Source: a virus. From it: DNA of 64,000 bases. The position numbers were made by a program, and so were the translations under genes. Every line of letters starts with the position of its first letter. Position 1 is the stretch's first letter. Below, piece after piece: positions 30,265-50,700 of this stretch. The DNA lies in the IMG/VR virus record IMGVR_UViG_3300019776_000324, positions 1 to 64,000 of that record. One strand, 5' to 3'. The notes under the pieces are model-generated. The model saw only the letters and a list, made by a program, of their open reading frames with translations, was not told where the DNA came from and made no database searches.

Positions 30265-31773
30265 TTAAGAGCAGACCTTTACTCCATATAATGCTTCAAA
30301 GCGGTCAGCGTCTGCTCTATCATTTACCATGGGCTCGCCTCTTATATTAAGACTAGTGTTTAATAACATAGGACAGCCAGTTAACACATACCATTTTTCA
30401 AGTAGCTTTCTAATGCCTGAGCCATTATCTGGCACCGTTTGTACTCGGCTAGTACCGTCGTGATGCACAATAGCAGGAAAAGCGTCAGGCTGGCGGCAAT
30501 AAGCTGTTGACTGCATATAAGGACTATGGCGGAAACCACAGGGCATACTAAAAAATTCATTAGCAAGCTCATCCAATATAACTGGCGCAAATGGCCTAAA
30601 CTTTTGTCTACGCTTGATTTCATTTACACGATCCTTTATATCCGGTCCTCGGGGGTCGGCGAGGAGACTTCTATTGCCCAGTGCCCTAGGGCCGAATTCG
30701 GCTCGTCCTGAAGCAACTCCAACGATCTTATCCCGTAGTAAGCTATCGAGTAGGGCATTGACAGGATATTCTCCGCCGATGTTATGACCCAAGTATGCGT
30801 GATCAAACTTAATTGGGCCACCATAGGCGAGGGCAGCAGCTCCGAGACTGCTACCGCTATCGCCAGGGCTAGGCATAATCCATATGTTTTCAAAATAATT
30901 TCCAAGTTCTCTATTAGCTAAACAGTTCAGGGCAACGCCGCCCTGGTATACTAGATTTGTGCTGAACCCAAAATTCTGGGCCCTAAGCATAACACTATAT
31001 ATCAATTCTTCTACCAAGTGCTGTGCTGCACCTGCAATATCATAATCATCAACACCGGCCATAAAGTTCGAGTCCAAGCCCAGGTGTAAATTCTCTTTAA
31101 ATTCAATATCTTTAATGCTGCGAATCAATTGCTCGCGCATGGGAATAGCATATACATTACCGTGTGTACTGTAAGCACTCATGCCCATGGTAATATATTC
31201 TTCGTCTAGTGGGTGTAGGCCAACTCGCTGAGTAATTGCACTATAAAAGAGTCCGATTGAATGTGGGTATTTTTGTCCCCAAAGCTTCTTATAAACTGCA
31301 CGACCCGTTCGATCATATTCTGCTCCGTATATTGATATTGTATCAAACTCACCTATGGCATCTATTACCACAACAGTGGCACGATCAAAAGGACTGGTTT
31401 GGAAGCCACTTGCTGCGTGACTTAAATGATGGTTATAGCATACTGTTTTTCTGGGTGCGTGTAACAACTGATCGCCCAGTTGTTCTTTTAACATGCTGTT
31501 TACTGTTAAACGCTTAACATCAAAGCCTTCACCTGACCGCAAGCGTCTTAATTGCTTCATCCAAGGACGCTCGTACCAGGCTACTGTATCTATATAATAG
31601 TTAGAAAACTCTGCCAGCAAAGCAGGGCATATATCAGCGTCATTCTTTTGTTTACTGTAACGCTCACTGTGCCCAGCAAATACAATTTCACCGTGGGTAT
31701 TAATTAGTGTGGCTGCTGCGTCGTGAAAGCCTGCGCTGACACCTAGAATATTTTTATAAGGCTCTAATTTCAT
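30265..31773 (-). CDS. NodU/CmcH-family carbamoyltransferase
   Basis: N-terminal ILGVSAGFHDAAATLI...GEIVFAGHSERY matches the family N-terminal ILGIS..HDSAAAL...G.IV.A..EER signature. About 500 aa is the typical length. Confidence 0.65.
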   Translation of the reverse strand: MKLEPYKNILGVSAGFHDAAATLINTHGEIVFAGHSERYSKQKNDADICPALLAEFSNYYIDTVAWYERPWMKQLRRLRSGEGFDVKRLTVNSMLKEQLGDQLLHAPRKTVCYNHHLSHAASGFQTSPFDRATVVVIDAIGEFDTISIYGAEYDRTGRAVYKKLWGQKYPHSIGLFYSAITQRVGLHPLDEEYITMGMSAYSTHGNVYAIPMREQLIRSIKDIEFKENLHLGLDSNFMAGVDDYDIAGAAQHLVEELIYSVMLRAQNFGFSTNLVYQGGVALNCLANRELGNYFENIWIMPSPGDSGSSLGAAALAYGGPIKFDHAYLGHNIGGEYPVNALLDSLLRDKIVGVASGRAEFGPRALGNRSLLADPRGPDIKDRVNEIKRRQKFRPFAPVILDELANEFFSMPCGFRHSPYMQSTAYCRQPDAFPAIVHHDGTSRVQTVPDNGSGIRKLLEKWYVLTGCPMLLNTSLNIRGEPMVNDRADADRFEALYGVKVCS

Positions 31774-31867: not shown

Positions 31868-32902
31868 TCATTTTAATTCCTTTATTTGTAGTAGAGCATA
31901 ATCAGGATCAGCCCACGAATATGGATATGTTGCTTCTGCATCGCTGGTTCTTATTGCTGCTACATCGAGACGAGTATTTAACTTGTCCCATATATAGCGG
32001 TAATCTTCTGTGCCAAAGCTACGCCGTAAGTCTACTTGTCCTACCTTAGGATGTCCTATAGTTAGTGTTTTATCTTCTGGGTCAAAGCCATTGTCTGTTA
32101 ACCAGCCGCGAAACTCCTTTAACTGCTTGATCTGCCAAGGAAATGCGCCGGGATCATTGGCCCATTCTATATCAAAATCGCCTGCGGCCAAGGTCTGTGC
32201 TGCTAGTGTTGTAGTAGTTAATTCATCGATACGGCTGTCTCTGCCTTCGTCACAAAACACTTCCCAATGGTGCTTGCCCACTGCTTTATTAACTCCCACA
32301 TATACTCCGCCCAAGCTACGGTTAATTGTTTCTATGCCAAACAGCTCATAATCCTCCGCATCCAGTGCAAAGCGTGGAGCATTTAGCCAGCACATTAATT
32401 GACTGGGTCTTTGCCATTCGGGTGCTGTGTGCTTTTTACGCCAACTTAATTGCCATGATTCAAACTCATGACACAGTAAATTTAACTGTCTAATATGCCA
32501 GCGTGTAGCAGGATCTGCTTGTGCGTATAAAGGACTAGGAGCAGCAGCAGTACCTTGTAGATCTTCAAAGTATCTGTGTAGCAGATTAAACTGTGCATGA
32601 TTAACTCCGCCCGAATCGTCTACACTGTTTTCTAGCGTAAAATGATTGTCAATTTGATAGTTTAATTCGCTGGCATTAATTGCAGCAATGGAACGATTAA
32701 TTTCTTTGATTAATAATTCACCGTTGCGTGGACCGTCTGCAAAGCCAAAGAAACAATAGTTCTTTTCTAAATGATAATTGTTGCGGATTAATTCATTTAA
32801 TGCTGCCAGCCATTTACGACTTAAACTGTTGTCGTACACATTGATATAAACAGTTAGATCATTTAGATCTAATTCAACAACATCAAGTAATAATTGATTC
32901 AT
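31868..32902 (-). CDS. hypothetical protein (344 aa)
   Basis: ORF only. Confidence 0.45.
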   Translation of the reverse strand: MNQLLLDVVELDLNDLTVYINVYDNSLSRKWLAALNELIRNNYHLEKNYCFFGFADGPRNGELLIKEINRSIAAINASELNYQIDNHFTLENSVDDSGGVNHAQFNLLHRYFEDLQGTAAAPSPLYAQADPATRWHIRQLNLLCHEFESWQLSWRKKHTAPEWQRPSQLMCWLNAPRFALDAEDYELFGIETINRSLGGVYVGVNKAVGKHHWEVFCDEGRDSRIDELTTTTLAAQTLAAGDFDIEWANDPGAFPWQIKQLKEFRGWLTDNGFDPEDKTLTIGHPKVGQVDLRRSFGTEDYRYIWDKLNTRLDVAAIRTSDAEATYPYSWADPDYALLQIKELK

Positions 32903-34175
32903 ACCATTCCTGTATTTCTTTATCTTCGCTTAGGATATCTCCTAGCGTATATGCGTCGCCACGGATCGCTTCTAATTGTAACACACGACGCTTGCCCTTT
33001 ACAAGTCCTGCTTGATGCGTGTCAGGCCATTGTTCTGCAAATACAGGGCGTGTCTTTAACTGTACCAGCACATCCTGTAACGAACCCGAGGTTAAGGGTA
33101 TTAATTCATCCAATTTACGGTGTAATACAGATCGAGGTAGTGCTAGCGGACTTAATAAGATATCGGGTGAAAAGCTGAATACTACTTTGGCCAGGATTTC
33201 AGTGTCTAATTCTTGTGCAAGTCGCATAATGCGTTCAATTTCAAACAGTCCGGGCAAGGTAAGTGTAAAGTCGATTCGGACCTGGCGGCTGTAATGTCTG
33301 TGTGCAACTGCTTGACGCATGTTTCTAAGCCATGAATCGTAGTCGAGGCCTGTTCTAATGTATTCGCCAATCCGGCCCGTTCCGTCGATGCTCGCACAGA
33401 TCTGGTAATCTCGAATATGATCAAGAATATCACTGAACAGGTTAATACCCCTATAGTCACAACGACTAAGGTTGGTATTGTATCTAGCGTATATCTTAGG
33501 CCCATCACCCAGTTCAATTATGCGTTTCATATAACGCCAGTGTTGCTCGTACATTAGGGGCTCTCCGCCTACCCAATATACTTCTTCTACACGGTGTTCT
33601 TCAACAGCTTGAGCAAACTCTGCTTCAATTTGGCTGTCCTGAAACGCTGTAATCTCTTTCTTAACTTCTGGCAACATCCAATTGTTCTTGGAATTTGACC
33701 AGTCTATCATGTTGTGTGTACGCTGTTCTGATTCCCACGCACTTGACAACATGTCACCACACATACGGCACTTAAAGTTACACAAGTTACTGAAACGATA
33801 ATCCCAGCTAACGGGTTTCATTTCGGTTGCGCCATCTGCTGTGGTTAGCTCCATAGCTAATGGGTATTTACTGCCAAATAAATGATCGAAATATGTACGG
33901 TAAACCGCAGTGTTTAGCAGTTTATCATTGCATACAGCGCACTCAGGCAACTCTTCTCCGGCCATCATTCTGCGACGCACACTCTTCATATGCTCACTAT
34001 TCCAGTGTTCTTCTAAGCTGATAGGAATATACCGGCCCGTGCCTGAGCTAGTATCTATATACTGTTCAAAGTTCTGTGCAGGCTCACGGCTAGCGCAACA
34101 CATACGCCGTTCTGTTTGTGGACTTAGATAAGTGTGTGTCCACGGTGCCATGCACAAGGTTGCTGGTTTTGTCAT
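32883..34175 (-). CDS. radical SAM enzyme, subfamily 1 (A)
   Basis: CNFKCRMCG (CxxxCxxC). GGEP motif YWVGGEPLM. N-terminal Cys motif LCMAPW-x13-CCA. Confidence 0.7.
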   Translation of the reverse strand: MTKPATLCMAPWTHTYLSPQTERRMCCASREPAQNFEQYIDTSSGTGRYIPISLEEHWNSEHMKSVRRRMMAGEELPECAVCNDKLLNTAVYRTYFDHLFGSKYPLAMELTTADGATEMKPVSWDYRFSNLCNFKCRMCGDMLSSAWESEQRTHNMIDWSNSKNNWMLPEVKKEITAFQDSQIEAEFAQAVEEHRVEEVYWVGGEPLMYEQHWRYMKRIIELGDGPKIYARYNTNLSRCDYRGINLFSDILDHIRDYQICASIDGTGRIGEYIRTGLDYDSWLRNMRQAVAHRHYSRQVRIDFTLTLPGLFEIERIMRLAQELDTEILAKVVFSFSPDILLSPLALPRSVLHRKLDELIPLTSGSLQDVLVQLKTRPVFAEQWPDTHQAGLVKGKRRVLQLEAIRGDAYTLGDILSEDKEIQEWYESIIT

Positions 34176-35395
34176 TAAAAGTCTGCTTTATTATATTCAA
34201 TTATGGCTGCAAACTCTGGCTCAGCTAGACTTAAATCTTGATTGCGTTTACGATCTAAATCAGCTATTTTCATTTTGAGTAAAAAGCCATCTAAACTTGC
34301 GCCATTATTCATAAAATCTACAACACGATCAAATTCACCGCGAGCATGATCATTTACTTGAACAGTGGCCAATTTGGCAGCAATTACTTGTTTGGCTGTG
34401 TCGGGCAAGGTACTGATACTAAAATAATAAGCTTCATGCATCATATTCCAATAGACATAATCAAACCCTTGAGCATAAACAAATTCAGCCAGTTCATCCA
34501 AGTAATAAACATTAAACACATTAATGGTGCAACAGAATTGTAATTGTATATTTGTGTGTCTGCTCTTTAATTGTTTAAATCTTTCAATATTAACTTGTAC
34601 TTCGGACCAAACAGCGCCGGATCGTTGATATTCAAAGCGTGAACCAACATCATCAATACTTACAGCTATTTCAACCATTTTAAAATGGCTCCAAATTGAT
34701 TCAGCTTCTTCGGGATATTGTGTGCCATTTGTATTGTAATGAATTTCAATATTGCCAGCAATACCGCGATCAACTAGGCCTCGAAGCATGTCAAAGTGTT
34801 CGCGAATCATAAAAGGCTCGCCACCTGTAAACTCTATATAACGAATTTGATCTACTACTTGATCTATTTCAGTCCAAAAATTAGGATTCTCTCTGGGCCA
34901 TGCACCTTGTCTAAGCATTTGATAATGATGGCTGGACTTCTTTTGTTCGGGTGGCATGAACTGTAGTTCTTCTGTGGCAAATGTACTTGAACTCCATGAG
35001 CCGCAAATACGGCACTTTAAGTTGCAGATATTACCCAGCTTTAGATCCAAGAACATCAGGGGTTTGGCATCTAAGGTCCAGTCAGCTTCGTTGGCCAGCA
35101 TGTGCTTTAAACGGTCTAAGGTATGCATACGCTTGCTGGTACGGCCTGCTCGCTCTTCTCTAAAGCATTTGCGACATGTTTGCGGTTGCTTCTTGTCTAC
35201 AAACTCCTGGCGCAACTTACGCATGCTATGGCTATTTTGTATAGTGCTAAAGCTGGCAGTAGCTAGATTAAACTTCTCTCCGGCATTGTCTACCAGTTCT
35301 TCTTCAGCCAAACAGCAAGGGCGTACTGTGCCAATAGGACTGGCTTCTATACTGACCCAGGGCAATACGCAAAATTTATCGTGTGGTATATTCAT
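34175..35395 (-). CDS. radical SAM enzyme, subfamily 1 (B)
   Basis: CNLKCRICG. FTGGEPFM. N-terminal FCVLPW-x13-PCC. Confidence 0.7.
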   Translation of the reverse strand: MNIPHDKFCVLPWVSIEASPIGTVRPCCLAEEELVDNAGEKFNLATASFSTIQNSHSMRKLRQEFVDKKQPQTCRKCFREERAGRTSKRMHTLDRLKHMLANEADWTLDAKPLMFLDLKLGNICNLKCRICGSWSSSTFATEELQFMPPEQKKSSHHYQMLRQGAWPRENPNFWTEIDQVVDQIRYIEFTGGEPFMIREHFDMLRGLVDRGIAGNIEIHYNTNGTQYPEEAESIWSHFKMVEIAVSIDDVGSRFEYQRSGAVWSEVQVNIERFKQLKSRHTNIQLQFCCTINVFNVYYLDELAEFVYAQGFDYVYWNMMHEAYYFSISTLPDTAKQVIAAKLATVQVNDHARGEFDRVVDFMNNGASLDGFLLKMKIADLDRKRNQDLSLAEPEFAAIIEYNKADF

Positions 35396-36852
35396 TGTGG
35401 CGGTATTAAATTAAGTGTTTGTTTTACTTCTTGCTGTATAGCTTCGGGCAAGTTGTAAAACTCTTCAACAGTGGAAATCGTAGGCCAACCGGGGTCAGCT
35501 ACATCGGCGTAACCTTGTACAAAGGCCTGCTGTTCTGCTTGATACTTACTGCTGTATTTTAAAATTTGTTTGAGCTCTGGAACTACTGCCAGTAAACTTT
35601 CATTACGCACTGCATCCAAGTCCGTGGTTAAATTCCAAAACTTGTCTAGTAAGTGGCTGTTGTCCTGTGCCATCATAAACTCAATTGCGCCTTGGAATCC
35701 GCCCACTGCTCGTTGTATTGTATCAATGGGTCGTAGCCATTCGATATGCTGTTCAAACTCTGCTTTGAATTGGAGTTTTACATCCTCGGGCAACACATCA
35801 ATTCTGTATGCTTCTGGTCCTTGTAGTATGTTCAAGTTAAAGTCTTTGGCTTCAATAAAGCCCGATTCGACCATGTAACGATGGAAGCGAGTAAAGTTCC
35901 AAATATTCATCATGCTTAAGGTAGGACTGATCATAAAGTCTATATGCGGACATTCACGCTTGAGATCTCTAATGTTTTGTTCTACTTTGGCCCAGTCCGT
36001 TCCTGAGCGTATAACTTCTGCTCGATCGCCCATGTCATCCAAGCTGGCAGCCACGCATACATTAGGAAACTGTTTCCATAGCTCTAGTACGCTTTCTTTT
36101 TTAAAGCGCAAATCATTTAGGTTGGTATTGTAAATTAACCGTACATTGGTGTTGCCCTTTTCTATCAGCAACTTTAATATGCGATTATGCTCTTCCATGA
36201 TTAGCGGTTCGCCGCCGGCAAAGTAGATTTGATCTAAATGGGGAATATGCTCTTGCATCTGCTCCCATACATCTTCTTCGTGACGGCCAGCAAACTGTAC
36301 ACGGGGGCGTAGTTCTTTACCCCATAGCTTGACATCATCGTCGTACCAGCGACTGCTAAAGATACTACCGCAACTACGGCATTTGAGCTGACAGATGTTA
36401 CTGAAGCGCACATCCCAGTAGTGTAGCTTAAAGTCTGGTACACTGCCGTCTGCACGGGTTTGATCTATTTCAGCTATGTGTTGCCCAAAGTTCTTGTTTG
36501 AGTTGTTGCGCATACTGGCAAAGCCAAATGATTCCTGCTCGTAGCAATCACCGCATTCTTTACAAGGCAAATCTGCCAGCATGTTTCTACGCATTTGCCG
36601 CATGGGCTCATCGTTCCAGATTTCACGCATGGGCTTTTGTTTAAAGTTGCCCACAGGATGTTCGGCCTTGCCCAAACAGCAAGGATAAGCACGACCATCG
36701 GGCCATGCGTGTAAATGTATCCAAGGTAGCATACAGAAAGTGTCTGACTCCATGAGTCTGTGCTTTTGTTGTTCTGTTAGTTGTTCCAGCTTGATATAAC
36801 TGGGCACACGGTCTTGCCAGTTGTACTTGCCTATAATTTTTTGTTCGCTCAT
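35392..36852 (-). CDS. radical SAM enzyme, subfamily 1 (C)
   Basis: CQLKCRSCG. FAGGEPLI. N-terminal FCMLPW-x13-PCC. Confidence 0.7.
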   Translation of the reverse strand: MSEQKIIGKYNWQDRVPSYIKLEQLTEQQKHRLMESDTFCMLPWIHLHAWPDGRAYPCCLGKAEHPVGNFKQKPMREIWNDEPMRQMRRNMLADLPCKECGDCYEQESFGFASMRNNSNKNFGQHIAEIDQTRADGSVPDFKLHYWDVRFSNICQLKCRSCGSIFSSRWYDDDVKLWGKELRPRVQFAGRHEEDVWEQMQEHIPHLDQIYFAGGEPLIMEEHNRILKLLIEKGNTNVRLIYNTNLNDLRFKKESVLELWKQFPNVCVAASLDDMGDRAEVIRSGTDWAKVEQNIRDLKRECPHIDFMISPTLSMMNIWNFTRFHRYMVESGFIEAKDFNLNILQGPEAYRIDVLPEDVKLQFKAEFEQHIEWLRPIDTIQRAVGGFQGAIEFMMAQDNSHLLDKFWNLTTDLDAVRNESLLAVVPELKQILKYSSKYQAEQQAFVQGYADVADPGWPTISTVEEFYNLPEAIQQEVKQTLNLIPPQ

Positions 36853-38195
36853 AATGTATTGTACCAGTCTGCTAGTTGTGGGAATGTTTTGGTAAAGTTC
36901 TTGCCACGGCGTTGATCGTATTGAGTGTAGAACTGTTTAAAATCATTCAACAACTTGGGCATGTCAAATGCTTCCGAATGCGGAGTTTTAACCACATCCA
37001 AGTAATCAATTAACCGTTGCATGTGATTGATTTCGTGCTCGTGTAACAGTGGACTAGTTCTGTTAAGATCTAACCATGCCTGTAAACTATCTTTGTACTG
37101 TGTTCTCAGTGTGTCTGGAAGCACTAATGCACTTTGAAAACTTGGAAAGCGCAGGATGTTTAGTGTAAAACTAACACGCTCACGCCCATAACAAGTCTTG
37201 AGATGGTTAATAGAATTCAGCAGTTTAGGTAAGGTTTCTAAACATAAGGCGTTGATAGTGGCCATACAATGTACAGCACGAATATCGTCTGAATCCAACA
37301 AGCGTTGTACATTGCGCAACCAAGCTGAATAATCCAGGCCGTCGCGCACATACTCTGCTTGTTCAGCCGTGGCTTCCTGGCTGGTGTATATGTCTACTTC
37401 TAGTCCATCAATGCTTGATAACAAGCGATCTAAGTCTACTTCTGGACCCAGGTTACTGTTAATGGCTAGTCGTGTTTGACTTTTGCCCTTGTTCTCTTTG
37501 AACCAGTCGAGTAGCTTCCAAGTGTCGCCCGACATAAGCGGCTCCCCGCCCGTGATGCGTAACTCTTGGAGTGTTTTATGCAGGTCTGACTCCCACCACT
37601 TAAAGAACGCTTCAACATAGGGATTCGTTTCGCCAAACTTGTATAGTTGACTGCTAGGGTGATCATGAGTAAAGTGGTTACGCCCATCAGACACCAAGGA
37701 CTCATAGGGACCGTTGGATCGTATGTCTTTAACCCATGTGCTACTGAAAGCAGGGTTACAATAGCTACAAGCGAATTGGCAAGTGCGATCGAATGCGATT
37801 TCAAGTGTGCGAAGATTGACATCTTCTTGGTGTGGTTTTGTGTATGCTTCATCTAGGGCCTCTATAGGGTAAATTTTACTTTTGTACACACGATCGCTAA
37901 TAGCATCGCGACCCATGTCTTCAATCTTCCAGCAGTATTCACAGCCTCTAGGACGCTGGCCGATCTGCATGTTTAGTCGATCTATCTTCTTTTCCACTGT
38001 GTTGTGTATAGCACTGGGATTGGTTTTGATCAATTCCTCATCAATTTTGTGTGCTGGAGGATGATGACAACTTGTAGTCTGTCCTGATCCTAGCCATATA
38101 GTAGCGTTGTACCATTTGGCAGCGCAGAAGCTGGCACTTTTTGTGTCCAGCACTTGTTGTTTAAATTCCAAATCGTTCATGTATGTATTGTTCAA
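36849..38195 (-). CDS. radical SAM enzyme, subfamily 2 (D)
   Basis: CQFACSYCNPAFSSTW. ITGGEPLM. N-terminal FCAAKW-x14-SCHHPP. Confidence 0.7.
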   Translation of the reverse strand: MNNTYMNDLEFKQQVLDTKSASFCAAKWYNATIWLGSGQTTSCHHPPAHKIDEELIKTNPSAIHNTVEKKIDRLNMQIGQRPRGCEYCWKIEDMGRDAISDRVYKSKIYPIEALDEAYTKPHQEDVNLRTLEIAFDRTCQFACSYCNPAFSSTWVKDIRSNGPYESLVSDGRNHFTHDHPSSQLYKFGETNPYVEAFFKWWESDLHKTLQELRITGGEPLMSGDTWKLLDWFKENKGKSQTRLAINSNLGPEVDLDRLLSSIDGLEVDIYTSQEATAEQAEYVRDGLDYSAWLRNVQRLLDSDDIRAVHCMATINALCLETLPKLLNSINHLKTCYGRERVSFTLNILRFPSFQSALVLPDTLRTQYKDSLQAWLDLNRTSPLLHEHEINHMQRLIDYLDVVKTPHSEAFDMPKLLNDFKQFYTQYDQRRGKNFTKTFPQLADWYNTL

Positions 38196-39300
38196 AGTGT
38201 TTGGGGAATTCTTGGCGAATGCTAGGGCGAAGTTCTAGCATCAATTGTTGATTGTATTTACATGTTTCGTCTGCGGCAGTTATAAAAGCTGGCAAGTCCT
38301 GCCGACAAAGGTCCTCTACTACTTGCGCTATTCGCTCAAGTCTAGTTTGATTATCCTCAATAAGATCAAAACTTTCATCAATCAAGTGTCCAAATGTGCG
38401 AAATCCTAGGTTGTGTAAGTCTCGATAGTAGCCATAGTTACTAGCCACAATAAATGGGTGACCCATAGCCACTGGTTTCCATATCTTTTCTGTTCTAAAA
38501 GAATGCGGATAGGTAAACACTGTTTCAGTAACTAGACTAAAGTAAGTGTCAAGGTACGGCAAGGGTGCTAGATATATTTCGCCCCACTCTCGTTTGAACA
38601 AATGATTTTTAGCATAGAATCCATCTGTTGAATCTTTAGCTGGTACTGCTACTGCTTGGGATTGATATCTATCAACTTCGTATTTTGGAGGCAAATAGTG
38701 TATGGGATTCTCTGTCAGTTTAATATCTAGTAGTTCGGTGTTGCCCACAACATCATCCAAGTTTGTCCAAAGGCATTGATCAATCAAACCAGACTCTTTA
38801 AAACTATCTAATAGATATTTTCTATGAGCACGGAATCTACCATTTAAAAACAAAAACTTATATGGACGGTCTGTGCTTTTCTTTTCTTGGTACTCAGCAA
38901 TTGCCTGTATATTTTCTTCGTAGTCGTGTACTAATGTTAGAAAATGTTCATGATACAAGTGCGGTATTTCTGTGGGCAGGTGCCCGCCAACAATAAGTCC
39001 TACAGGAAGATTATGGGTCAACATGTATTCAATACCAAAAGTACGATACATCCATAACATACTGTAAGATCCTTCAGCAGGGTTACATAGTATTGCAGTT
39101 ATGGTATTGCTTGAAACTAATTCTTGTATGCGGTTTTTATGCTCAGCAAACTGTTGCCGACCAAATATGTATATTGCACCTGGAATGATTTTGCACTCAT
39201 TTAAATCCCAAAACTCTTCGTCTGCATAGGGTTTAAGTAGATTTTGTATTTCACAAAAGCTGTTTAATACTACTTTACGATTGCCGAGCATAGTACTCAC
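38161..39300 (-). CDS. fucosyltransferase-like glycosyltransferase, paralog 3
   Basis: RTEKIWKPVAMGHPFIVASNYG...GFRTFGHLIDESFD. Confidence 0.45.
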   Translation of the reverse strand: MSTMLGNRKVVLNSFCEIQNLLKPYADEEFWDLNECKIIPGAIYIFGRQQFAEHKNRIQELVSSNTITAILCNPAEGSYSMLWMYRTFGIEYMLTHNLPVGLIVGGHLPTEIPHLYHEHFLTLVHDYEENIQAIAEYQEKKSTDRPYKFLFLNGRFRAHRKYLLDSFKESGLIDQCLWTNLDDVVGNTELLDIKLTENPIHYLPPKYEVDRYQSQAVAVPAKDSTDGFYAKNHLFKREWGEIYLAPLPYLDTYFSLVTETVFTYPHSFRTEKIWKPVAMGHPFIVASNYGYYRDLHNLGFRTFGHLIDESFDLIEDNQTRLERIAQVVEDLCRQDLPAFITAADETCKYNQQLMLELRPSIRQEFPKHFEQYIHERFGI

Positions 39301-40687
39301 ACTCCTTCCACCATGCTGACATTTCTGGAAATACAGTTAAAAAGTCTGTGCCGTGGCGACGGTCTGCTTCGCTGAAGAACTTAAAGAAGTCTGCTTTACA
39401 TTGATTAATGTATGCAGGATCTAGCTTTTGTCCGTCGCGCATCCACGCAATATCTCTATCCAATCTAGCAATCTCATAGTCCTTGAATCCTTGAAAGCGT
39501 GTGGCGTCTGTTTCAATTTGACGGATCATCCAGGCCCACAAGTGTTCTAGTTGCTCTACATAGCTTTCTGGAAGTATTTGTAAACTTTGCCAGGCAGGTT
39601 GTCTAAGCACAGGAGTATCAAACCATACACGCTGATAAGTTTTACTGTATATTTTTCTTAGACCCAGGATACCAGCAAACAAACTACTTAGGTTAGTCAC
39701 ACTTAGGTTATTCATAGTGACAATAAAAGTTATACTGTTATAACTAGGAACTTCAGTAAGGAATTGATTTACACGATCCCACAACAAATCAAAGTCAAGA
39801 CCGTGTCTGATGTACTCTGCTTGTGGTCCAAAGCTGTCCAAGCTGATGTACTGCATAAAGTGTTCCAAGTTGCCTTCTTGGCATAGTTGTTTACAATAGC
39901 CCAGGTACTTTTGCCAGGTCTTTTCGTCTACACTGAAGTTGCTGGTTACATTTAAGTGTAGATCTGGCTTGGGGTTGGCCAACACATAATCAAACACACG
40001 ATAGGTATTCTTGTCTAGCATGGGCTCGCCACCAGTCATGCGGAAGTGCTGTAGTTCTGGGTACAAGGTAGGCCACCAATCCCAAAACGCATCTACATAA
40101 GGATTATCATGGCTAACAGGGATAGGCTTATTACGACCGGTGAAATGGCTAGGATCGTTATGAGTAGTACTTGTAGGGTATCCGCCGTACTTGTCCACCT
40201 CAGCTTGCCAAGTGCTTGAAAATTGCGGACTGCAATAACTACAAGCCAAGTTACAAACATGATTGAAATTAACTTCCACATAGCTAGGTGTAACATCTTC
40301 ATCTCCGGTTGAATTCATTATACTATCAAAGTCTTTGGCGGCCCATGGTTCACCAGATCGATAGTGGCGGTCGCTTAACTTGTTGTTATCTTCCATAGCC
40401 CAGCAATAAGAGCATTCGCTAGGGCGTTCTTGCTTTAACATAATCTTACGCTGTTCTTTCTTATGCGGAGTATTATGTAGTGCTGACGAATTGTCTGCTA
40501 ATAGGCCAGCATCAATTGGGTGCAGGGGAGGATGATAACAACTGTTGTTGAGTCCGGTAGGCAAGTGTAGGCTAACTTGTTTCCATTTGGCCAAACACAT
40601 GCCGTGACCCAAGCGATCCTTCATCTCTTCTGCTGAGCTTAAGAACTTGCTTTTGTTATCTACTGATTCGTCGCCTTTGTTATTCAT
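39275..40687 (-). CDS. radical SAM enzyme, subfamily 2 (E)
   Basis: CNLACSYCSPQFSSTW. MTGGEPML. N-terminal MCLAKW-x14-SCYHPP. Confidence 0.7.
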   Translation of the reverse strand: MNNKGDESVDNKSKFLSSAEEMKDRLGHGMCLAKWKQVSLHLPTGLNNSCYHPPLHPIDAGLLADNSSALHNTPHKKEQRKIMLKQERPSECSYCWAMEDNNKLSDRHYRSGEPWAAKDFDSIMNSTGDEDVTPSYVEVNFNHVCNLACSYCSPQFSSTWQAEVDKYGGYPTSTTHNDPSHFTGRNKPIPVSHDNPYVDAFWDWWPTLYPELQHFRMTGGEPMLDKNTYRVFDYVLANPKPDLHLNVTSNFSVDEKTWQKYLGYCKQLCQEGNLEHFMQYISLDSFGPQAEYIRHGLDFDLLWDRVNQFLTEVPSYNSITFIVTMNNLSVTNLSSLFAGILGLRKIYSKTYQRVWFDTPVLRQPAWQSLQILPESYVEQLEHLWAWMIRQIETDATRFQGFKDYEIARLDRDIAWMRDGQKLDPAYINQCKADFFKFFSEADRRHGTDFLTVFPEMSAWWKECEYYARQS

Positions 40688-41327
40688 TGTGGAAATGCCC
40701 TTGAGAATATTGCCATGATCCTAGTTGTTCCTGTACATAATCCAAGTTTGAAAACATGTCAGATAAAGGAAAAGCAAATTGATTTTTAAAAATGTTTGTT
40801 TGAGTGTTAAAAGTTAAGTTCTCGTAACACAATACAAAGTCTGGTAAAAAATAATCATCTACCAGTTGTTCTAGTTTAAACTGATCAATATCTTGTTTGG
40901 TTGCTGTGATTTCTTTTTCTTTCACTCTTGTATTATTTGGGGTGTGATTATGCCAGCCGTGTAATCCTGTTGGATCCATAACTCTAAAGTATATCCAACT
41001 TGAAAATTGTTTTACTTTATCCATGCGCTTGATGTTGACAATTATGTTGCGTTGTTTAATTTGATCTACATCGATTGCCAGGGTCATTTTGGGAGTCAAC
41101 TGAACTAGTTGCGCTACTGTAAGTGTTGATGCTGAAGATAACTTGTTGATATCATCCCACGGATTATCACAATATCCTACCTTGCAAATTTCTTCTAAGT
41201 TTTTTGCACCACTGATTGCACAAAGTTCTGCAGATAGGGCATGAGTTCCGGATCGCGGAGCTCCTATAATTAAAATATTTTTCTGCTGTTGTTTAGCACA
41301 ATCAATAATAGTTTGATACATTACCAA
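40680..41327 (-). CDS. sulfotransferase-like P-loop protein
   Basis: LIIGAPRSGTHAL resembles the PAPS 5'-phosphosulfate-binding loop (xPKSGTTW) of sulfotransferases. Confidence 0.4.
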   Translation of the reverse strand: MVMYQTIIDCAKQQQKNILIIGAPRSGTHALSAELCAISGAKNLEEICKVGYCDNPWDDINKLSSASTLTVAQLVQLTPKMTLAIDVDQIKQRNIIVNIKRMDKVKQFSSWIYFRVMDPTGLHGWHNHTPNNTRVKEKEITATKQDIDQFKLEQLVDDYFLPDFVLCYENLTFNTQTNIFKNQFAFPLSDMFSNLDYVQEQLGSWQYSQGHFHNE

Positions 41328-42289
41328 CCTTCTTGGCTTCTAATAACATCCATTTCTCTGATCATAACTCCTTGGTTATGCCAGTTACTGCGATAATGCT
41401 GTTTAAAGAATTTACTTTCCGGCCCTAGTATATTGAGCATTGATAAATCTAATTGTGTAGCAAGATCTTCAGCTACTAGTCCAGCAACCATTTCGGGGTT
41501 TTTATCTTCTATAGTTGACCACAGTTCTTTTAGTGCATCAAAACTTTGTACTTGTTTGTAGTCCCATTCAGGAGTAATCATGGTCATGTAGGTGCCCATT
41601 CTTGCGCCAGCAATGGCCCAGATACCATGGTCAACATCGCGTCCTACATTGTGCCATATAGTTAAATGATCCAAGTTACGATGATGCACACGATTTTTAA
41701 ATTCTTGTAAGCTAGGGCGGGCACCTTTGTTTAGGCACATCTTAACACCTTCGCGGAAGCCAGCTCGCCATGCTTGGAACGCACTGGCATTAGGATATGT
41801 AGTACTGTAGCAATCGTGCATGGCAATGTAGTTAGGATAAAAACAAAACTCCACATCATTCTCTGCTGTGCCGTCTGTATTCTCGTGCGTTTTCATGTTG
41901 TAAACAAAATCCTTAGTCCAACAACTTAGTCCACCATTGCCATACATGAGTCCGTTGATGTGATTGCGAGCTCTCCAACGGAATACACAATCTTCATCGC
42001 GTTCTTGTAGGGTCAGTGTCAAGTTAAAAAACTTATCATCTGGAATGTTGTCGCCGTCAATTAACACAAAGCGATCTGTATTACTAGCATCTGCTGCTGC
42101 TTTATGTGCTGCATCCGATCCTTTAACACCATCTACACGAACAGCCCAAGGTACCATGTTTTTAATTTTAACCCAGGTATCTTCTTTGTTGGGTTCGTCG
42201 TAGCTTAGATAAACACAATCTAAATCTGCAATATCAATTTGTTTCATTTCTTGTTTTGTTCCATTTTGTATGTGGTAGCGAGTTGTCAA
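41321..42289 (-). CDS. hypothetical protein (322 aa), possible DxD-type transferase
   Basis: VLIDGDNIPDD. No firm family match. Confidence 0.4.
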   Translation of the reverse strand: MTTRYHIQNGTKQEMKQIDIADLDCVYLSYDEPNKEDTWVKIKNMVPWAVRVDGVKGSDAAHKAAADASNTDRFVLIDGDNIPDDKFFNLTLTLQERDEDCVFRWRARNHINGLMYGNGGLSCWTKDFVYNMKTHENTDGTAENDVEFCFYPNYIAMHDCYSTTYPNASAFQAWRAGFREGVKMCLNKGARPSLQEFKNRVHHRNLDHLTIWHNVGRDVDHGIWAIAGARMGTYMTMITPEWDYKQVQSFDALKELWSTIEDKNPEMVAGLVAEDLATQLDLSMLNILGPESKFFKQHYRSNWHNQGVMIREMDVIRSQEGW

Positions 42290-44676: not shown

Positions 44677-45666
44677 TTAGGCTACAGATGCGGCAATAGT
44701 TGGGGTACCCCAAGTATTTGTCAAATAGGTTGTACTTGGTGGAATATAAGTTACTAATGTTGTTGGTGCTGTAGCAGCGCCAATTGTGGTTGATGGACTT
44801 GCTACAGCAGTACCACCAGAAATATTACTTGTTGTTCCTGGTGCACTAACCGCTGGTTGAACCCAAGTAGTAACAAGTGTTAATACTGTGCTTGATGTTG
44901 CTGTGGCAGTTGTACGGATATATTCGCCTGTGTATGGTGTGCCGGCATTGTTTAATTGGAAAATTGTTGTTGGCGTTCCAATAAGATTATACCAGCCAGT
45001 GCTAGTAGCCAAAGTAGTTTGTGTACCACCTGTACCACCTAAGCGTGTTGTACCTGTGTAGGCTTGAGCTGCAATAGTTTGTGCGCCGCCGGTGATATTA
45101 ATACTACCGCATTGGCCTGCAAATGTGTTCCAGTCAGCATCAAGGTCAGTACCGGTACTTGATTTACCGTATTGAATTTTTACAATGCCGCCGGCATTAA
45201 AGAAATAACGAGTTTGGTCAGCACTTGGAAATGTTACTGTATGAGTAAATGTAATTGTCCAGGCACCTTGTGTTCCGTTACTAGTTGCTGTAGTTTTACT
45301 TGTCGTTCCGCTAAATGTACCATAAGCAGCACCAGAAGTAGATGCATTACCGCGATTGTTGTAGCAGTTTGTTAAGTCTGTACTAACTGCGGCTAGTGCA
45401 GTAATGGTCTGACCTGCTGTAGGAGCAGTTCTTGATGTAAGAGTTGTGCCAGTTTGACTACCCATGAGTGCCAAGGTATTAACCAAACTTGCCCAATTTG
45501 TTGCTGTTACAGTGCCGCCAATACCTACTGTGCTTAGTGCAGATTGCCCCCAGCCAGCATTAGTAGTACCTGTGCTCCATGTTGCGTTAACGTTGGCGCC
45601 TGATGTTGTGCTAACAAAACCATTATAGTCTGATGCTTGAATTAATCCACCTGATGAATATGTCAT
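44677..45666 (-). CDS. tail-fibre-like protein (329 aa)
   Basis: Thr/Gly/Ser/Ala-rich low-complexity beta-type sequence typical of fibre shafts, in the structural module. Confidence 0.5.
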   Translation of the reverse strand: MTYSSGGLIQASDYNGFVSTTSGANVNATWSTGTTNAGWGQSALSTVGIGGTVTATNWASLVNTLALMGSQTGTTLTSRTAPTAGQTITALAAVSTDLTNCYNNRGNASTSGAAYGTFSGTTSKTTATSNGTQGAWTITFTHTVTFPSADQTRYFFNAGGIVKIQYGKSSTGTDLDADWNTFAGQCGSINITGGAQTIAAQAYTGTTRLGGTGGTQTTLATSTGWYNLIGTPTTIFQLNNAGTPYTGEYIRTTATATSSTVLTLVTTWVQPAVSAPGTTSNISGGTAVASPSTTIGAATAPTTLVTYIPPSTTYLTNTWGTPTIAASVA

Positions 45667-45681
45667 ACTTTATTTTTCCAA

Positions 45682-46959
45682 TTAATTTGTAGTAACGATT
45701 GCTTCTACTGTACCTTCGGTTGCATCTAATTTATCGCGTAATGCACGACCAATAACATTAAAAGCTGTAGCTTCGCCAGGTTGTGCTGCTCTTGCTAACC
45801 CATTACCTGCGCTTACTAATCGATCACCTTTGTAGATGATTCCAACGGATCTAACCGGTACTCGTCCAGTCATTGCAACTGGTGGATGTGTAGCGTCTGT
45901 ACCAGCTTGGCTATTCATTAAGTAAGCAGCTCTTGTACTTATCACACCAAAAACTTTTTCACTTAATTCGCTAGTAACTTGAGTGATTTCAGCTGAACCG
46001 CCGAGCTCTACCACAGTACCAGGAACCATTTCTACATCTGCTTCAAAGCGTTCTGCAACGTCAGCGTAGTTTGCGTTGATTTGGTTACCACTGATAGTGC
46101 CGTTAGCACCGTAAATAGTCATTGCTGTAGTTGGTGTACCACCAATGTTTACACTGAATGAAAGATTACCGTTGCTAGTTTGATTTGATACTGATACATT
46201 TGTGTTAGATACCTGAACTCTGAAATCTGAGTTTAAGCCAACTGCTAAACCTGTATTGTTAAGAACACTCACAGTTCCTGTAGTTTGTGTATTTGCATCA
46301 CTGCGCATAAACTGAGTGCTAGACAAACTATTTAACTGTTGAGCGTTTGTTGCTGTGCCTTGGAACAATGGAACCTGTGAACCAACTAATGTTGACAATG
46401 TGATACCAGGGCGAACTGTTGTGAATCCACTTAGTGGAGGACTTGGGGTAAATGCAGCATCTTTACTGATAATACCAACAATACTGTTGTTTACATATAA
46501 TTCTACAACAACGTGATTGGTAGTGCCGTCTGACAATGTTGCTACGATTGCACCTGTTGTGCCTGTACCTGCGGTAAACTGTGGTCCAATTAATAACCAT
46601 GCACTACCAGTCCAAACATTTAACTGAGCATTTGTAGTGTCGTACCATAAGTCACCTGTACTGTTGCTTGTCGGAGCAGTTGAGCTAGCAGTAGCGGCAC
46701 TAATAGTTTTGAAAAGTGTACCGTTGTAAACTTTTAAAAGATTATTACCAGAATCCCACCAAAGCTGACCTGTTAATGGTGCTCCAGGAGGTGTTGTATT
46801 TGAACCGTTTTCTAGTAAATGAATAAAGTTGGTATCTAAAAAGTCGCCGTAACCAGCGTAGTTTTTACCAATCAAGGTCATTGAACTTGATGTGTTGATG
46901 GTACCGTCTGCTATTGTAGCAAAGACTGTACCGTCAGTTAAATTAATTGTATATGCCAT
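45682..46959 (-). CDS. tail fibre protein (425 aa)
   Basis: Repeats of the fibre motif GQLWWDSGNNLLKVYNGTLF / GDLWYDTTNAQLNVWTGSAW. Confidence 0.55.
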   Translation of the reverse strand: MAYTINLTDGTVFATIADGTINTSSSMTLIGKNYAGYGDFLDTNFIHLLENGSNTTPPGAPLTGQLWWDSGNNLLKVYNGTLFKTISAATASSTAPTSNSTGDLWYDTTNAQLNVWTGSAWLLIGPQFTAGTGTTGAIVATLSDGTTNHVVVELYVNNSIVGIISKDAAFTPSPPLSGFTTVRPGITLSTLVGSQVPLFQGTATNAQQLNSLSSTQFMRSDANTQTTGTVSVLNNTGLAVGLNSDFRVQVSNTNVSVSNQTSNGNLSFSVNIGGTPTTAMTIYGANGTISGNQINANYADVAERFEADVEMVPGTVVELGGSAEITQVTSELSEKVFGVISTRAAYLMNSQAGTDATHPPVAMTGRVPVRSVGIIYKGDRLVSAGNGLARAAQPGEATAFNVIGRALRDKLDATEGTVEAIVTTN

Positions 46960-47006
46960 TTATTGCTCCGTCTTTGTATATTTACCGCAAAATAATATAC
47001 TCATAT

Positions 47007-47615
47007 TTATGCTGTACTCAAGTTAGTTAAAGTTTGAATACGCAAAGTATAATCAATTTGAATTTGGCGATTTAAGCTCTTTTGTACTGGGTGGAAAATT
47101 ACATGAGTAATTAGCAATAAATTAGTAGCACTTCCGTTCCAGCACTGTAAGCCCAATTCGTCAAATACGAATTCACCGTTAAAATTGGTACTATTATCAA
47201 ATGCTTGTTGTCCAGCAGGTTCGCCGTAATCTAACAAGCAAGTAGTTACAATATCAGTATAAACATTACCTGATGTATGTAAAACTGTGAGATAGTTATT
47301 TGCTGGGTCAACATCGGCTGCTGAATTGTTATCAACTACCTTGGAATATGTTTCGTTATACAAACTGGCATTTTGTCCAGTTGTGTTTGGCGGCAAATAA
47401 GTGATAACACCGGTTGGATCAACTGCGCTGCCGCCGTTGCCGAATGCCATTTTATAGATAAATCCTGTATTTTTATCAGCTAGAGTATTAGCCATGCAAA
47501 TACTAATGTTCTCGTAGTGAATTGCATTCTTTTTATCTACAAATACTTCACCCGATGCTGGGTCATAAACTTTTAAAAAGCCTTGAATGCTAGTTAAGCC
47601 TGGGGTTAAAATCAT
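47007..47615 (-). CDS. tail-associated protein (202 aa)
   Basis: In the structural module. N-terminal GFLKVYDPASGEVFVDKK motif is duplicated in the upstream small ORF. Confidence 0.5.
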   Translation of the reverse strand: MILTPGLTSIQGFLKVYDPASGEVFVDKKNAIHYENISICMANTLADKNTGFIYKMAFGNGGSAVDPTGVITYLPPNTTGQNASLYNETYSKVVDNNSAADVDPANNYLTVLHTSGNVYTDIVTTCLLDYGEPAGQQAFDNSTNFNGEFVFDELGLQCWNGSATNLLLITHVIFHPVQKSLNRQIQIDYTLRIQTLTNLSTA

Positions 47616-47755
47616 GCTCGTTTCTCCACGAATACCTTTTTAGTGTTTGGGTCAAAAATCTTTACAAAACCTTCAACAGAAACCGATCCTGTTTCGTTAG
47701 GGCGCTTTGGTGCAGGAGTTGGAGCTGGCTTTGGTGTAATATTTTCAGTCATGAT
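47612..47755 (-). CDS. 47-aa ORF duplicating the N-terminal motif of the next gene, absent from the ORF track
   Basis: Translates to MTENITPKPAPTPAPKRPNETGSVSVEGFVKIFDPNTKKVFVEKRA. ATGA overlap with the start of the 47007..47615 gene. EGFVKIFDPNTKKVFVEKRA vs QGFLKVYDPASGEVFVDKKNA. Confidence 0.4.
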   Translation of the reverse strand: MMTENITPKPAPTPAPKRPNETGSVSVEGFVKIFDPNTKKVFVEKRA

Positions 47756-47768
47756 TTATTTACCTGGT

Positions 47769-50700
47769 TTATAGACCCCGTAAAAACCTTGCGGCCTTAG
47801 TTTCGGTTTCTTGTAGCGGAACACCGTTACTTGCGGTGCCTGCACCTTGCTCGTACCATGTTACACCTCTGCGAACCAACATTGTAACTTCTGCTCCAGC
47901 AGGCGGTGCATCAGTAAATGTAATTTCTGCTGGATTTTCGCCTGTAACTGTGTAGCCAGTAGTTACTCTGGTTCCGCCAACATATACTTCTAAACTTTCG
48001 TCACGGATTGAACTATCTTCCAACAACAAATTGATATCAACTGCGGTAAACACTGTAGTTGATCCATCAGCTATTGCGCTGTTAGTTACAATATAGTTTT
48101 GATATTGTTCTGGTAACAAATTGCCGCGGCCTAGGTTATAAACTATTGCATCACTATCGTGCGGTGCAGCGGCTGTACCGGCAGTTCCTCTTAGCAAGCC
48201 ACTTACAGTACCAGTTTGTTCATCCCAATAACGATACATGATACGCTCAGCATCAATTGTTAACACTCCCCAAATATTAGCAGCAAAATTTGGTTGTGTC
48301 AATGCTAGAATATTACCAACATAGATAACATCATCATCTTGAGCAACTGGTTGAGTAGTTACTGTTGTTGTTTGTGGAGTCATTCTATAAGTAGCCTGTA
48401 CTCCGCGCATGTCCTGGAATATTCTAAACTCCATAGATCCTGGAACTACACTTTGAGTAAAGCTGGTAATTGCCACAACTGTCTGTGCTGGGATCGTAGG
48501 GCCTAGGATAACAACATTTGATCCGTCAACTGTAAATCCAATGCCATTAAAGATCCATTCTCCGTTGACTGTAACCAGAAGTCTGTCTGGATTGTCGATG
48601 ATTGTACCAGTATCAAATACATTGGATTGTATTTGTGAACCAACACTGTAATCATACGATCCAGTAGTGTTGTTAACTGATGCGCTGTCAAAATCAACAC
48701 TATCGTATCCTTCTGATATTGTTATTCCAGAAGTAGTTGGGCCTACAAACACTTGTGTAAGTATGCCTTGTTCACTGGTGTCATTCCAAGTCACAAATTC
48801 AAGAAGGTCACCAACTTGCGGACTTAATCCTGCTTCTGGAAGGAAAGTTAATTCGTTGCCAGATATATTATACTGTGCTCCAGTTGAAACAGAAACTATC
48901 AATACTGTTCCTGGTGCTGGTGGAAATGCCATTGTAATAGTACGATTAGAAGAACCGTCCCATGGGCTAACTACATAAACAACATTTTGTTCTTGTAGTA
49001 CATTGTTGAAATATACTTCTACATCTGAGTCAGCAATCAATCCTTCGCTATATCCGCCGCGACTTGGTAAATCAAAAGTCTCAGTAGATCCATCACCAAT
49101 ATATCGTACGCTTTCGTATGGACGAGCTCTTACACCGTTACGCAATACCATTATGTTAACTGGGTTTGTACCTTGTAAACTATTAGTTAATGTGTAAGTT
49201 AATTGTGATGAGTCAGTAACTGTAGTAGTCTGGAATACTGGTAAACTCCAACTGTAAGTTGTGCCGTTGTAACCATATCCAAACGCAGCAAGATTGATAC
49301 GATCTGTAATGCCGTAAGTATCAGTGAATGTTACTAGAGTATTGTTTGTTCCAGCAATCTGCGCATAGGTATAATCAACTCCATTGACTAATTGTGTTTC
49401 GCCATTATAAATTAGGAATTCATATATGAGAGCCGCACCTGAAATTTCTGTCCAATAAGTTGTATTAGTTGGTAGTTGTCCAGAAAAATCATTGTCAATT
49501 GATTGATAGAACAGATTGTTATAAGAAACTACATCACCGTAGAAATATGTTGTTGAACTATTAAAAGCAACCGGAGTTGTAAACGGTACAACGACTGAGT
49601 CAAGTGATGCTTCGTTATAGGTCTCAAGATACAGTTGATTTCCACCGCCTACACCTGTAACATACGCAATTATAGTGTCGCCAGCTCTTGCTGTAGTTGG
49701 ATCAACAGTTAATTCATACTCAGCCCAATTGTACGACAACGGCTCAATTGCTAATTCAAGAGTAGCATTAAACAATATTACAACCATTGGATTTGCTAGT
49801 ACATTAGCAAAACTTATTGTAGGGTTAGCAGGATCGTACTCATAGCGACGACTAGCTATTGGGAATCCGTGTCCAAGGCCAAGCCAGTCAGCACCAGGAG
49901 TTGTGTAAACTCTAAAGTCTAAGGTATCAAATTCTGCACCTGGGATTAATTCTTCTGGTGCATGACTACTATATGTGTCAACATAGGCGCCGCCGTCAAC
50001 ATTAATGTCAGTAGGTCTTGTACCTAAATAGGTATCCAAGTACGAGCTTGAATATATTGCATCTAAAATTTCAGGTGAGTATGTTGGTGCACCTTCTGCT
50101 CCATATGCAATGTTATCAAACGGGTTGATGTCAAAATTACCAACATCAAAACCAGTATTTTGACTGAATGTAGGAGCAGTTACTTGTACACCTGGATAAT
50201 CAATACCATCTATCAACAGTGGAAGGCTCAAGCCAGGCATGTTGATACCAGGAACATAGTATCCCATTGTGCGGTCAACACCGCTTAGGTCACCAGCTTC
50301 GATTAATGTCCAATTGCTAGGAACAAACACAGAACTTGATCCAGATTGATCAGCTTCCCAAACTGCGTTAGACCAGCGTACTCTTGCGCCCTGGATGTAG
50401 GTTACATTGGCTTGCCATTCAGCAATACTGGTTGAATATTGATAACGGTCGTATTTGATTGTAGTCTTAATAGATCGTACAAGGCCGTTGCCCATTTGTG
50501 ATACAGCTATGGCTCCAGATCCGTTACCGCCAGTGAATGTAATAATTGCAGTAGTACTATATCCGTAACCTGGATCTACTATATTAACGCCACTAACTTG
50601 TCCAGAACCGTTGATGATTGCTGTAATAGTTGCTGGAGTAATGCAATCACCAGTTACTACTACATCAGGAGCAATAGTATATCCAGATCCGCCATTGATA

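Follow-up and report, generated by a model that had tools for sequence, protein, structure and literature searches.

In radical S-adenosylmethionine (rSAM) enzymes, twitch domains are canonically C-terminal extensions of the rSAM core (PMC9012708), in which one cysteine precedes a β-hairpin, one follows it and two come after the following helix α2' (PMC6231123). Their archetype is BtrN, the 2-deoxy-scyllo-inosamine dehydrogenase of butirosin biosynthesis, which acts on a carbohydrate-like substrate and ligates a single auxiliary [4Fe-4S] cluster by four cysteines in that same order (PMC6231123, PMC9012708); this cluster is the proposed electron acceptor in a two-electron oxidation. In the tetraether synthase Tes, a lipid-substrate enzyme, an auxiliary [4Fe-4S] domain is found N-terminal to the barrel (PMC9433317). 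Here we analyse five rSAM genes, named A to E, that lie on the minus strand of a stretch of 64,000 nucleotides (the window), which corresponds to positions 1 to 64,000 of the IMG/VR virus record IMGVR_UViG_3300019776_000324. Their products are deeply diverged paralogues within one curated family, NF033640, with a predicted twitch module N-terminal to the barrel, and on balance we favour a function in the cooperating radical tailoring of sugars or glycans by five enzymes in series.

NF033640 is the NCBIfam family named "twitch domain-containing radical SAM protein" (N_Twi_rSAM), with a curated cutoff of 170 bits and 398 model positions. All five proteins score above this cutoff (A 285.9, B 328.3, C 408.4, D 291.7 and E 305.0 bits), with E-values from 5e-85 to 3e-122 and near-complete coverage of the model, an assignment that the original prediction, made from the sequence alone, had considered out of reach. 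The likeness extends to the four-cysteine N-terminal segment and to the CxxxCxxC, SSxW, GGEP, NTN, SxD and ExxR motifs, and no structural difference sets A-E apart from the family, which itself has no assigned reaction; a literature search found no paper characterising any of its members. What goes beyond the family description is the occurrence in a phage, the fixed order of five genes, and the split into subfamilies with PW/CC-type and KW/SC-type N-terminal motifs. The N-terminal motif first regarded as unusual is the hallmark of NF033640, a SPASM-related twitch module, or half-SPASM Fe-S domain, placed N-terminal to the barrel, and the finding is not categorically new. Pfam models concur in part, since Radical_SAM (PF04055, gathering threshold 29.5 bits) recognises A (34.5), B (41.8) and C (36.8) but leaves D (22.4) and E (16.8) below, and SPASM is above threshold at the N-termini of A (22.0 bits, residues 8-83), B (30.8 bits, residues 9-77) and C. 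The earlier observation that a SPASM-type C-terminal cluster is missing holds for the C-terminus, where only 2-4 cysteines per protein, none of them conserved, follow the rSAM core, but not for the proteins as a whole. The family and cofactor part of our interpretation can be considered practically certain.

The family signature is C-x18-C-x40-51-CxxC, with an invariant CxxC 40-51 residues after the second N-terminal cysteine, and each protein therefore carries four conserved N-terminal cysteines, not the pair initially described, alongside the three that belong to the SAM cluster. These seven residues are invariant in A-E and across alignments of 23-28 orthologues. Furthermore, in a diverse set of 225 members, made up of A-E, 101 cluster representatives with a single domain and 119 copies from bacteria, the N-terminal cysteines are kept in 224, 216, 225 and 225 sequences, respectively, a conservation equal to that of the SAM-cluster cysteines.

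AlphaFold2 models of C and E, built from alignments of paralogues and orthologues, reached mean predicted local distance difference test (pLDDT) values of 78.7 and 80.6. The model of C places C40, strands 46-49 and 54-56, C59, helix 82-92, and C100 and C103 in succession, and that of E displays C31, strands 37-41 and 46-48, C50, helix 74-84, and C92 and C95. The twitch segment of E has pLDDT values mostly between 78 and 92, while that of C varies between 59 and 88 and falls below 50 at residues 61-64. As modelled, the order of cysteine, β-hairpin, cysteine, helix and CxxC in both proteins matches the published twitch layout. In all five, nonetheless, the module precedes CxxxCxxC, so that it does not occupy the canonical C-terminal location. 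Neither do they contain the seven-cysteine SPASM motif, CX9-15GX4C-gap-CX2CX5CX3C-gap-C, as only four non-core cysteines are conserved and CX5CX3C is absent. Each enzyme would bind a SAM-cleaving [4Fe-4S] cluster at CxxxCxxC and a second cluster fully ligated by the four cysteines of C-x18-C-x40-51-CxxC, in line with the auxiliary Fe-S cluster that had been suggested at first and that, judging from the cysteine pattern, is very probable.

Comparison with BtrN reveals the same predicted arrangement of the four ligands in A-E, and the BtrN ligands, C169, C188, C232 and C235, have a spacing equal to the x18 and CxxC of the phage proteins. On the contrary, the twitch domain is C-terminal to the barrel in BtrN and N-terminal in A-E, which moreover have an extra helical C-terminal region of ~120 residues, unlike BtrN. 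BtrN is absent among the sequence and fold matches listed, with no detectable similarity beyond the rSAM core. The module position predicted for A-E is shared with Tes; however, the surface N-terminal cluster of Tes uses CX3CX2C plus a histidine, Tes also has rubredoxin and C-terminal cluster domains, and its NF045702 model gives A-E only 13-14 bits against a cutoff of 450. No close relative of A-E has a solved structure: the only match in a phmmer search of PDB sequences, and a marginal one, was Tes/GDGT-MAS (7TOL, E 0.017), in the GGEP region. Foldseek matched viperin, SuiB and SkfB with template modelling scores of about 0.3, and the fold search against BFVD returned only uncharacterised phage proteins, from uncultured Caudovirales, KVP40 and phi-pp2.

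Other sugar-tailoring rSAM enzymes, namely BlsE (cytosylglucuronate decarboxylase), AprD4 and DesII, belong to clusters with aminotransferases and glycosyltransferases. NeoN and AviX12 are further examples of this chemistry. With BlsE and its like only the core barrel of A-E aligns, at 8-15% identity, the domain order differs, and the BlsE model TIGR04466 yields 24 bits against a cutoff of 400.

Metagenomic relatives of A-E have received JGI automatic names such as "sulfatase maturation enzyme AslB", "organic radical activating enzyme" and "MoaA/NifB/PqqE", which would agree with a housekeeping role as the anaerobic sulfatase maturase AslB (an anSME), as MoaA/PqqE or as an activating enzyme. 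Since every named equivalog (MoaA, NrdG, viperin, BlsE and the peptide maturases) falls far below its curated cutoff, these names are considered wrong and were rejected: the best scores are 27.1 bits against 284 for MoaA, 19.3 against 131 for NrdG2 and 28.1 against 180 for viperin_w_prok, and no anSME or PqqE equivalog model is among the NCBIfam matches listed for A-E. The different domain order, with no C-terminal SPASM domain, and the presence of five ordered paralogues in a glycan island, unfit for a cofactor pathway, also disagree with such roles. Housekeeping functions as anSME, MoaA, PqqE, NrdG or viperin are, therefore, effectively refuted by the curated cutoffs, and we regard this explanation as hardly credible.

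The SPASM maturases (anSME, PqqE, SuiB and SkfB) differ from A-E, whose four conserved cysteines predict one cluster, which have no CX2CX5CX3C for a second one, and whose module sits on the opposite side of the barrel. Another alternative is that a peptide or protein (virion fibre, the 4718-residue protein encoded upstream or a small precursor) is modified in a RiPP- or anSME-like manner (RiPP, ribosomally synthesised and post-translationally modified peptide) through cross-links, epimerisation or side-chain oxidation. A RiPP recognition element (RRE) or PqqD domain is present in none of the five according to Pfam and NCBIfam, and NCBIfam peptide-maturase models reach just 13-31 bits in front of cutoffs of 300-850. 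Together with the genomic context considered below, modification of a peptide or protein is unlikely in our opinion.

The rSAM superfamily is recognised by a CxxxCxxC cluster motif and a GGE motif for SAM binding, within a partial TIM barrel. Regular-expression searches confirmed for each of the five genes one CxxxCxxC, SSx[WF] directly after it and one GGEP. A to D are tandem and overlapping as predicted, by 1 nt between A and B and by 4 nt between both B and C and C and D, while D and E are separated by an ORF (open reading frame) of 379 residues that shares 35 nt with D and 26 nt with E, and in which the same searches detected none of the three motifs. Pairwise identities among A-E range between 19 and 32%, the latter being the value for D and E, and they group A, B and C apart from D and E. 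Both this paralogy and the division into two subfamilies had been foreseen, and the split recurs family-wide: among the 225 members, P is found at position 11 in 156 sequences against K in 61, and C at position 26 in 164 against S in 60. Some motif details required correction. B and C match FC-x-L-PW-x13-PCC as proposed, but A reads LCMAPW, without the expected F; the residues described for D and E are found as [FM]C-x-AKW-x13-SC[HY]HPP, the spacer being x13 and not x14. Similarly, the SAM-cluster segment of C is CQLKCRSCG and departs from the CN[FLQ]KCR.CG given for the first subfamily, while the C.[FL]ACSYC[NS]P.FSSTW of the second one is present in D and E.

The source of the window is an uncultivated Rak2-like jumbo myovirus of ~350 kb, with the array situated in a conserved late-strand island. 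The baseplate wedge protein (61925-63970; PHROG match at 7e-114) shares ~30% identity with its counterparts in jumbo phages of the Rak2, 121Q and Atu_ph07 group. Its gene is directly followed on the same strand by an ORF of 4718 residues (47769-61925) with one FG-GAP match and one match to the carbohydrate-binding CBM_5_12, probably a giant fibre or adhesin as judged from its sequence, then by fibre-like ORFs with fibre-related PHROG matches and finally by the rSAM island. Near-identical DNA was not found in cultured phages, but metagenomes hold a very large number of orthologues (80-89% identity), located on contigs of ~345-352 kb; orthologues of A in related contigs are 61-87% identical. The "moraphage" of the literature is a different lineage.

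In tblastn searches, homologues of C or E appeared in only four of 50,697 phage records: Ralstonia phage RsoM2USA, whose single copy is of the KW/SC type and has 35% identity to E, the Vibrio phages K566 and K567, and one virus from a marine single-amplified genome. K566 carries four copies at the fetched locus in a hidden Markov model scan, the most in any cultured phage scanned. The claim that five rSAM enzymes in one phage locus are highly unusual is consequently upheld with regard to cultured phages, but arrays of three to seven recur in Bdellovibrionota and Bacteroidota and the lineage itself is abundant in metagenomes.

The complete ordered set E-(379 residues)-D-C-B-A is conserved across related Rak2-like phage contigs of ~350 kb; it is kept, with a separate orthologue for every gene (46-81% identity), at four further loci (L001, L010, L012 and L013), and relatives show order-preserving fusions E-D, C-B and B-A. 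Because of this ordered orthologue set and of the fusions in gene order, the five are held to be old and functionally distinct enzymes that probably cooperate physically. Recent duplication and decaying copies were rejected as explanations, given that each of the five has separate orthologues (46-88% identity) in which every motif is preserved. A literature search found no description of the five-member jumbo-phage series, of the order-preserving fusions or of the association with GT-A-like proteins and a carbamoyltransferase (GT, glycosyltransferase). As a separate observation, contigs L009-L014, filed as bacterial metagenome-assembled genomes (MAGs), carry the phage-type ordered rSAM set, and L082 (JAUHVL010000001.1, 349,524 bp, jumbo-phage-like) carries the 322-residue partner of the island; they are probably phage contigs binned into MAGs.

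A profile of the five, run against 1.84 billion representatives, retrieved 5,772 clusters (50% identity, E<=1e-30). Tandem rSAM fusions of ~800 residues account for many of the best matches, and the extra parts of long members are limited to TPR repeats or duplicated rSAM units, none of which reveals the substrate. A genome scan with a single protein as query gave no relatives, whereas a query alignment of three paralogues plus two outgroups identified 458, mostly in Bacteroidota, Bdellovibrionota, Alphaproteobacteria and Polyangiaceae. In Bdellovibrionota and Bacteroidota, arrays of three to seven copies characterise the family. Seven copies lie within 17 kb at L080, and there are six at L048 and five each at L051, L040 and L017. 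PW/CC-type and D/E-like copies coexist at L080, L078 and probably L051, clear KW/SC-type ones being present at the first two; the D/E-like copies of L051 share just 22-24% identity with D and E and do not have the SC signature.

The neighbourhoods of 18 chromosomal loci were surveyed by a Pfam scan of 137 ORFs. The commonest neighbours are GT2 glycosyltransferases (8, 5 and 3 for three related, possibly overlapping Pfam models), further rSAMs (7) and PhyH dioxygenases (6), followed by TPR proteins (5), GDP-mannose dehydratase/epimerase (4), methyltransferases, ABC transporter genes and DegT (2). At L051 the order is GT2-rSAM-GT2-rSAM and then five family rSAMs, and at two plasmid loci the family members have genes for glycosyltransferases, ABC transporters, FkbM methyltransferases and a carbamoyltransferase as neighbours. 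Homologues of the carbamoyltransferase, 322-residue and 344-residue proteins of the island recur beside family rSAMs in both bacteria and phages. A 470-residue protein with a type IV pilin N-methylation motif is encoded at 12493-13905 of L078, a Bdellovibrionales chromosome, directly after an array of four rSAMs; it is a possible protein target.

With glycan-gene neighbours both in the window and at bacterial loci, a sugar-related pathway, one of the options first put forward, has the best-supported context. The candidate chemistries named at first were epimerisation, C-methylation and cross-linking. In the proposed scheme, the 5'-deoxyadenosyl radical of each enzyme would abstract hydrogen from a specific sugar C-H, in a nucleotide sugar or in a sugar already within the growing glycan. 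The four-cysteine auxiliary cluster would serve as electron conduit, as proposed for BtrN, and the outcome may be an oxidation, epimerisation, dehydration or similar tailoring step. The five enzymes would form a physically coupled series, in view of the fusions E-D, C-B and B-A that follow the gene order in relatives, and would act with the GT-A-like proteins and the carbamoyltransferase. The resulting glycan could be destined for virion fibres or the giant adhesin, for the host envelope, for some other acceptor or, with lower probability, for DNA.

Several points weigh against this proposal. The neighbourhood evidence is correlative and modest, glycan genes being present at just some of the 18 bacterial loci, the SPASM/twitch enzymes known best are maturases of peptides, and a substrate has been demonstrated for no NF033640 member in the searchable literature. 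The TPR fusions of some members, together with the TPR proteins among neighbours, could point to protein substrates, as could the pilin-like protein of L078 and the location of the phage array directly downstream of fibre, giant-protein and baseplate genes. Nevertheless, no conserved precursor-like ORF turned up, although no systematic precursor search was made, and the most common recurrent neighbours are glycosyltransferases, sugar-nucleotide enzymes and carbamoyltransferases.

The island could alternatively serve hypermodification of the phage DNA, with phage glycosyltransferases decorating hydroxymethylated bases while the rSAMs tailor the glycan or the base. Phage glycosyltransferase clusters are known to glycosylate DNA, according to work cited in PMC12619734, and A-E have weak sequence and fold similarity to the nucleotide-acting rSAMs viperin, MoaA and QueE. 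However, no base-hydroxymethylase or DNA-modification gene is found among the scanned ORFs of the window, the locus is embedded among tail genes, and the bacterial arrays adjoin GT2, ABC transporter and GDP-mannose dehydratase genes instead of DNA metabolism, all of which makes a DNA target very improbable. Tailoring of sugars or glycans by the five enzymes remains the reading that we prefer.

The features of the island and its surroundings are collected in Table 1. The ORF between D and E, kept at that position in L001, L012 and L013, had been called a fucosyltransferase-like glycosyltransferase, but no family model supports this: neither Pfam (at E<=10) nor NCBIfam, PHROGs or PDB sequences yield a match, and the only resemblance to GT10 fucosyltransferases is a "TEK...P.IV"-type motif. 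A BLAST search against L001 located paralogues of this ORF at positions syntenic with the plus-strand ORFs 26483-27568 and 27558-28706, and it thereby belongs to a small multi-copy family within the island, on both sides of the carbamoyltransferase.

Table 1. Positions of the rSAM genes, their predicted twitch segments and associated features in the window.
Feature	Position	Strand	Remarks
SDR (short-chain dehydrogenase/reductase) epimerase/dehydratase and DegT-family aminotransferase	22109..24122	+	Pfam Epimerase 1.8e-42, DegT_DnrJ_EryC1 3.5e-58
NodU/CmcH-type carbamoyltransferase	30265..31773	-	Pfam Carbam_trans_N 1.4e-31, Carbam_trans_C 1.4e-47
344-residue ORF	31868..32902	-	Directly after A; no assigned function
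rSAM A	32883..34175	-	430 residues, PW/CC subfamily
Twitch segment A	33930..34154	-	C8, C27, C79, C82
rSAM B	34175..35395	-	406 residues, PW/CC subfamily
Twitch segment B	35165..35371	-	C9, C28, C74, C77
rSAM C	35392..36852	-	486 residues, PW/CC subfamily; of the five, nearest the family consensus
Twitch segment C	36544..36735	-	C40, C59, C100, C103
rSAM D	36849..38195	-	448 residues, TTG start, KW/SC subfamily
Twitch segment D	37932..38126	-	C24, C43, C85, C88
379-residue ORF	38161..39300	-	Between D and E; no assigned function
rSAM E	39275..40687	-	470 residues, KW/SC subfamily
Twitch segment E	40403..40597	-	C31, C50, C92, C95
215-residue ORF	40680..41327	-	Sub-threshold Pfam Sulfotransfer_1 and Sulfotransfer_3, E 0.04-0.05; N-terminus IIGAPRSGTH
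322-residue GT-A-like protein	41321..42289	-	DGD motif; weak Pfam Glyco_tranf_2_3, E 0.0048
Two ORFs, 241 and 253 residues	42836..44306	-	Conserved module upstream of the 322-residue protein
Structural block: fibre-like ORFs, 4718-residue protein, baseplate wedge	44677..63970	-	Upstream of the array, same strand

On the other side of the array, the 344-residue ORF is kept after A in L001, L002, L010, L012 and L013, and a homologue 30% identical to it lies between two family rSAMs in L086. Homologues of the carbamoyltransferase (30-33% identity) occur in six rSAM-bearing loci (L008, L024, L045, L050, L062 and L074), and the SDR/DegT pair, related to nucleotide-sugar supply and with a 4-amino-4,6-dideoxy sugar as expected product, is found ~10 kb away. 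Homologues of the 322-residue protein adjoin family rSAMs in RsoM2USA (~216.6-219.7 kb of its record), L059, L076, L081 and L082, and share their locus in L077. Moreover, the gene order 253-241-x-322-rSAM is common to L001, L005 (RsoM2USA), L011, L013 and L059, coming after fibre-like genes in RsoM2USA, L011, L013 and L059. The 215-residue product is a possible sulfotransferase-like P-loop protein by its sequence, a lead rather than a finding. Some metagenomic orthologues of E have 645 residues, with an N-terminal extension of ~172 residues that may reflect a fusion with the 215-residue gene or a miscalled start. Also inside the island, an 89-residue ORF (42574-42843) encodes a very basic, zinc-ribbon-like protein with a CSVFSCGNPNCIFC cysteine knot and no family match.

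Scans for promoters and terminators between 29 and 48 kb stayed at chance level, and Rfam gave no match in the window. ARAGORN called a 92-nt tRNA-Pro(AGG) at 521-612, inside ORF 132-1103, which is probably a false positive since Rfam reports no tRNA there at its gathering threshold. Between 5293 and 15530, about 45 back-to-back plus-strand ORFs of 60-130 residues, many with GTG starts and with overlapping stops and starts, accompany a strongly positive GC skew (0.15-0.24) and look like an early-gene block of tiny proteins. Phage auxiliary genes unrelated to the array encode a homologue of TctC-family periplasmic solute receptors (2721-3620, 1.3e-25), a MoxR-type AAA ATPase (4146-5231) and a DUF2201 metallopeptidase/VWA protein (15584-16867).

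Regarding annotation, the proper name for A-E is N-terminal-twitch radical SAM proteins (NF033640), and not AslB, MoaA or activating enzymes. Being big, unstudied and repeatedly arrayed or fused beside glycosyltransferases, the family is a good target in the search for new radical chemistry on sugars. As regards phage biology, a conserved series of five enzymes lies beside the fibre genes of an abundant aquatic jumbo-phage lineage, and a one-enzyme version exists in the culturable RsoM2USA; together they offer a testable route to whether large phages decorate virions or hosts with radical-tailored glycans. We advance more tentatively, and with doubts that outweigh our confidence, that NF033640 may be a large class of glycan-tailoring radical enzymes used in ordered, coupled series, each enzyme for a different sugar position or residue, from which jumbo phages would have captured five for a radical-modified, carbamoylated and possibly sulfated glycan on tail fibres, the giant adhesin or the host envelope. 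If true, both the radical chemistry on carbohydrates and the modification of virion or host would be so far undescribed.

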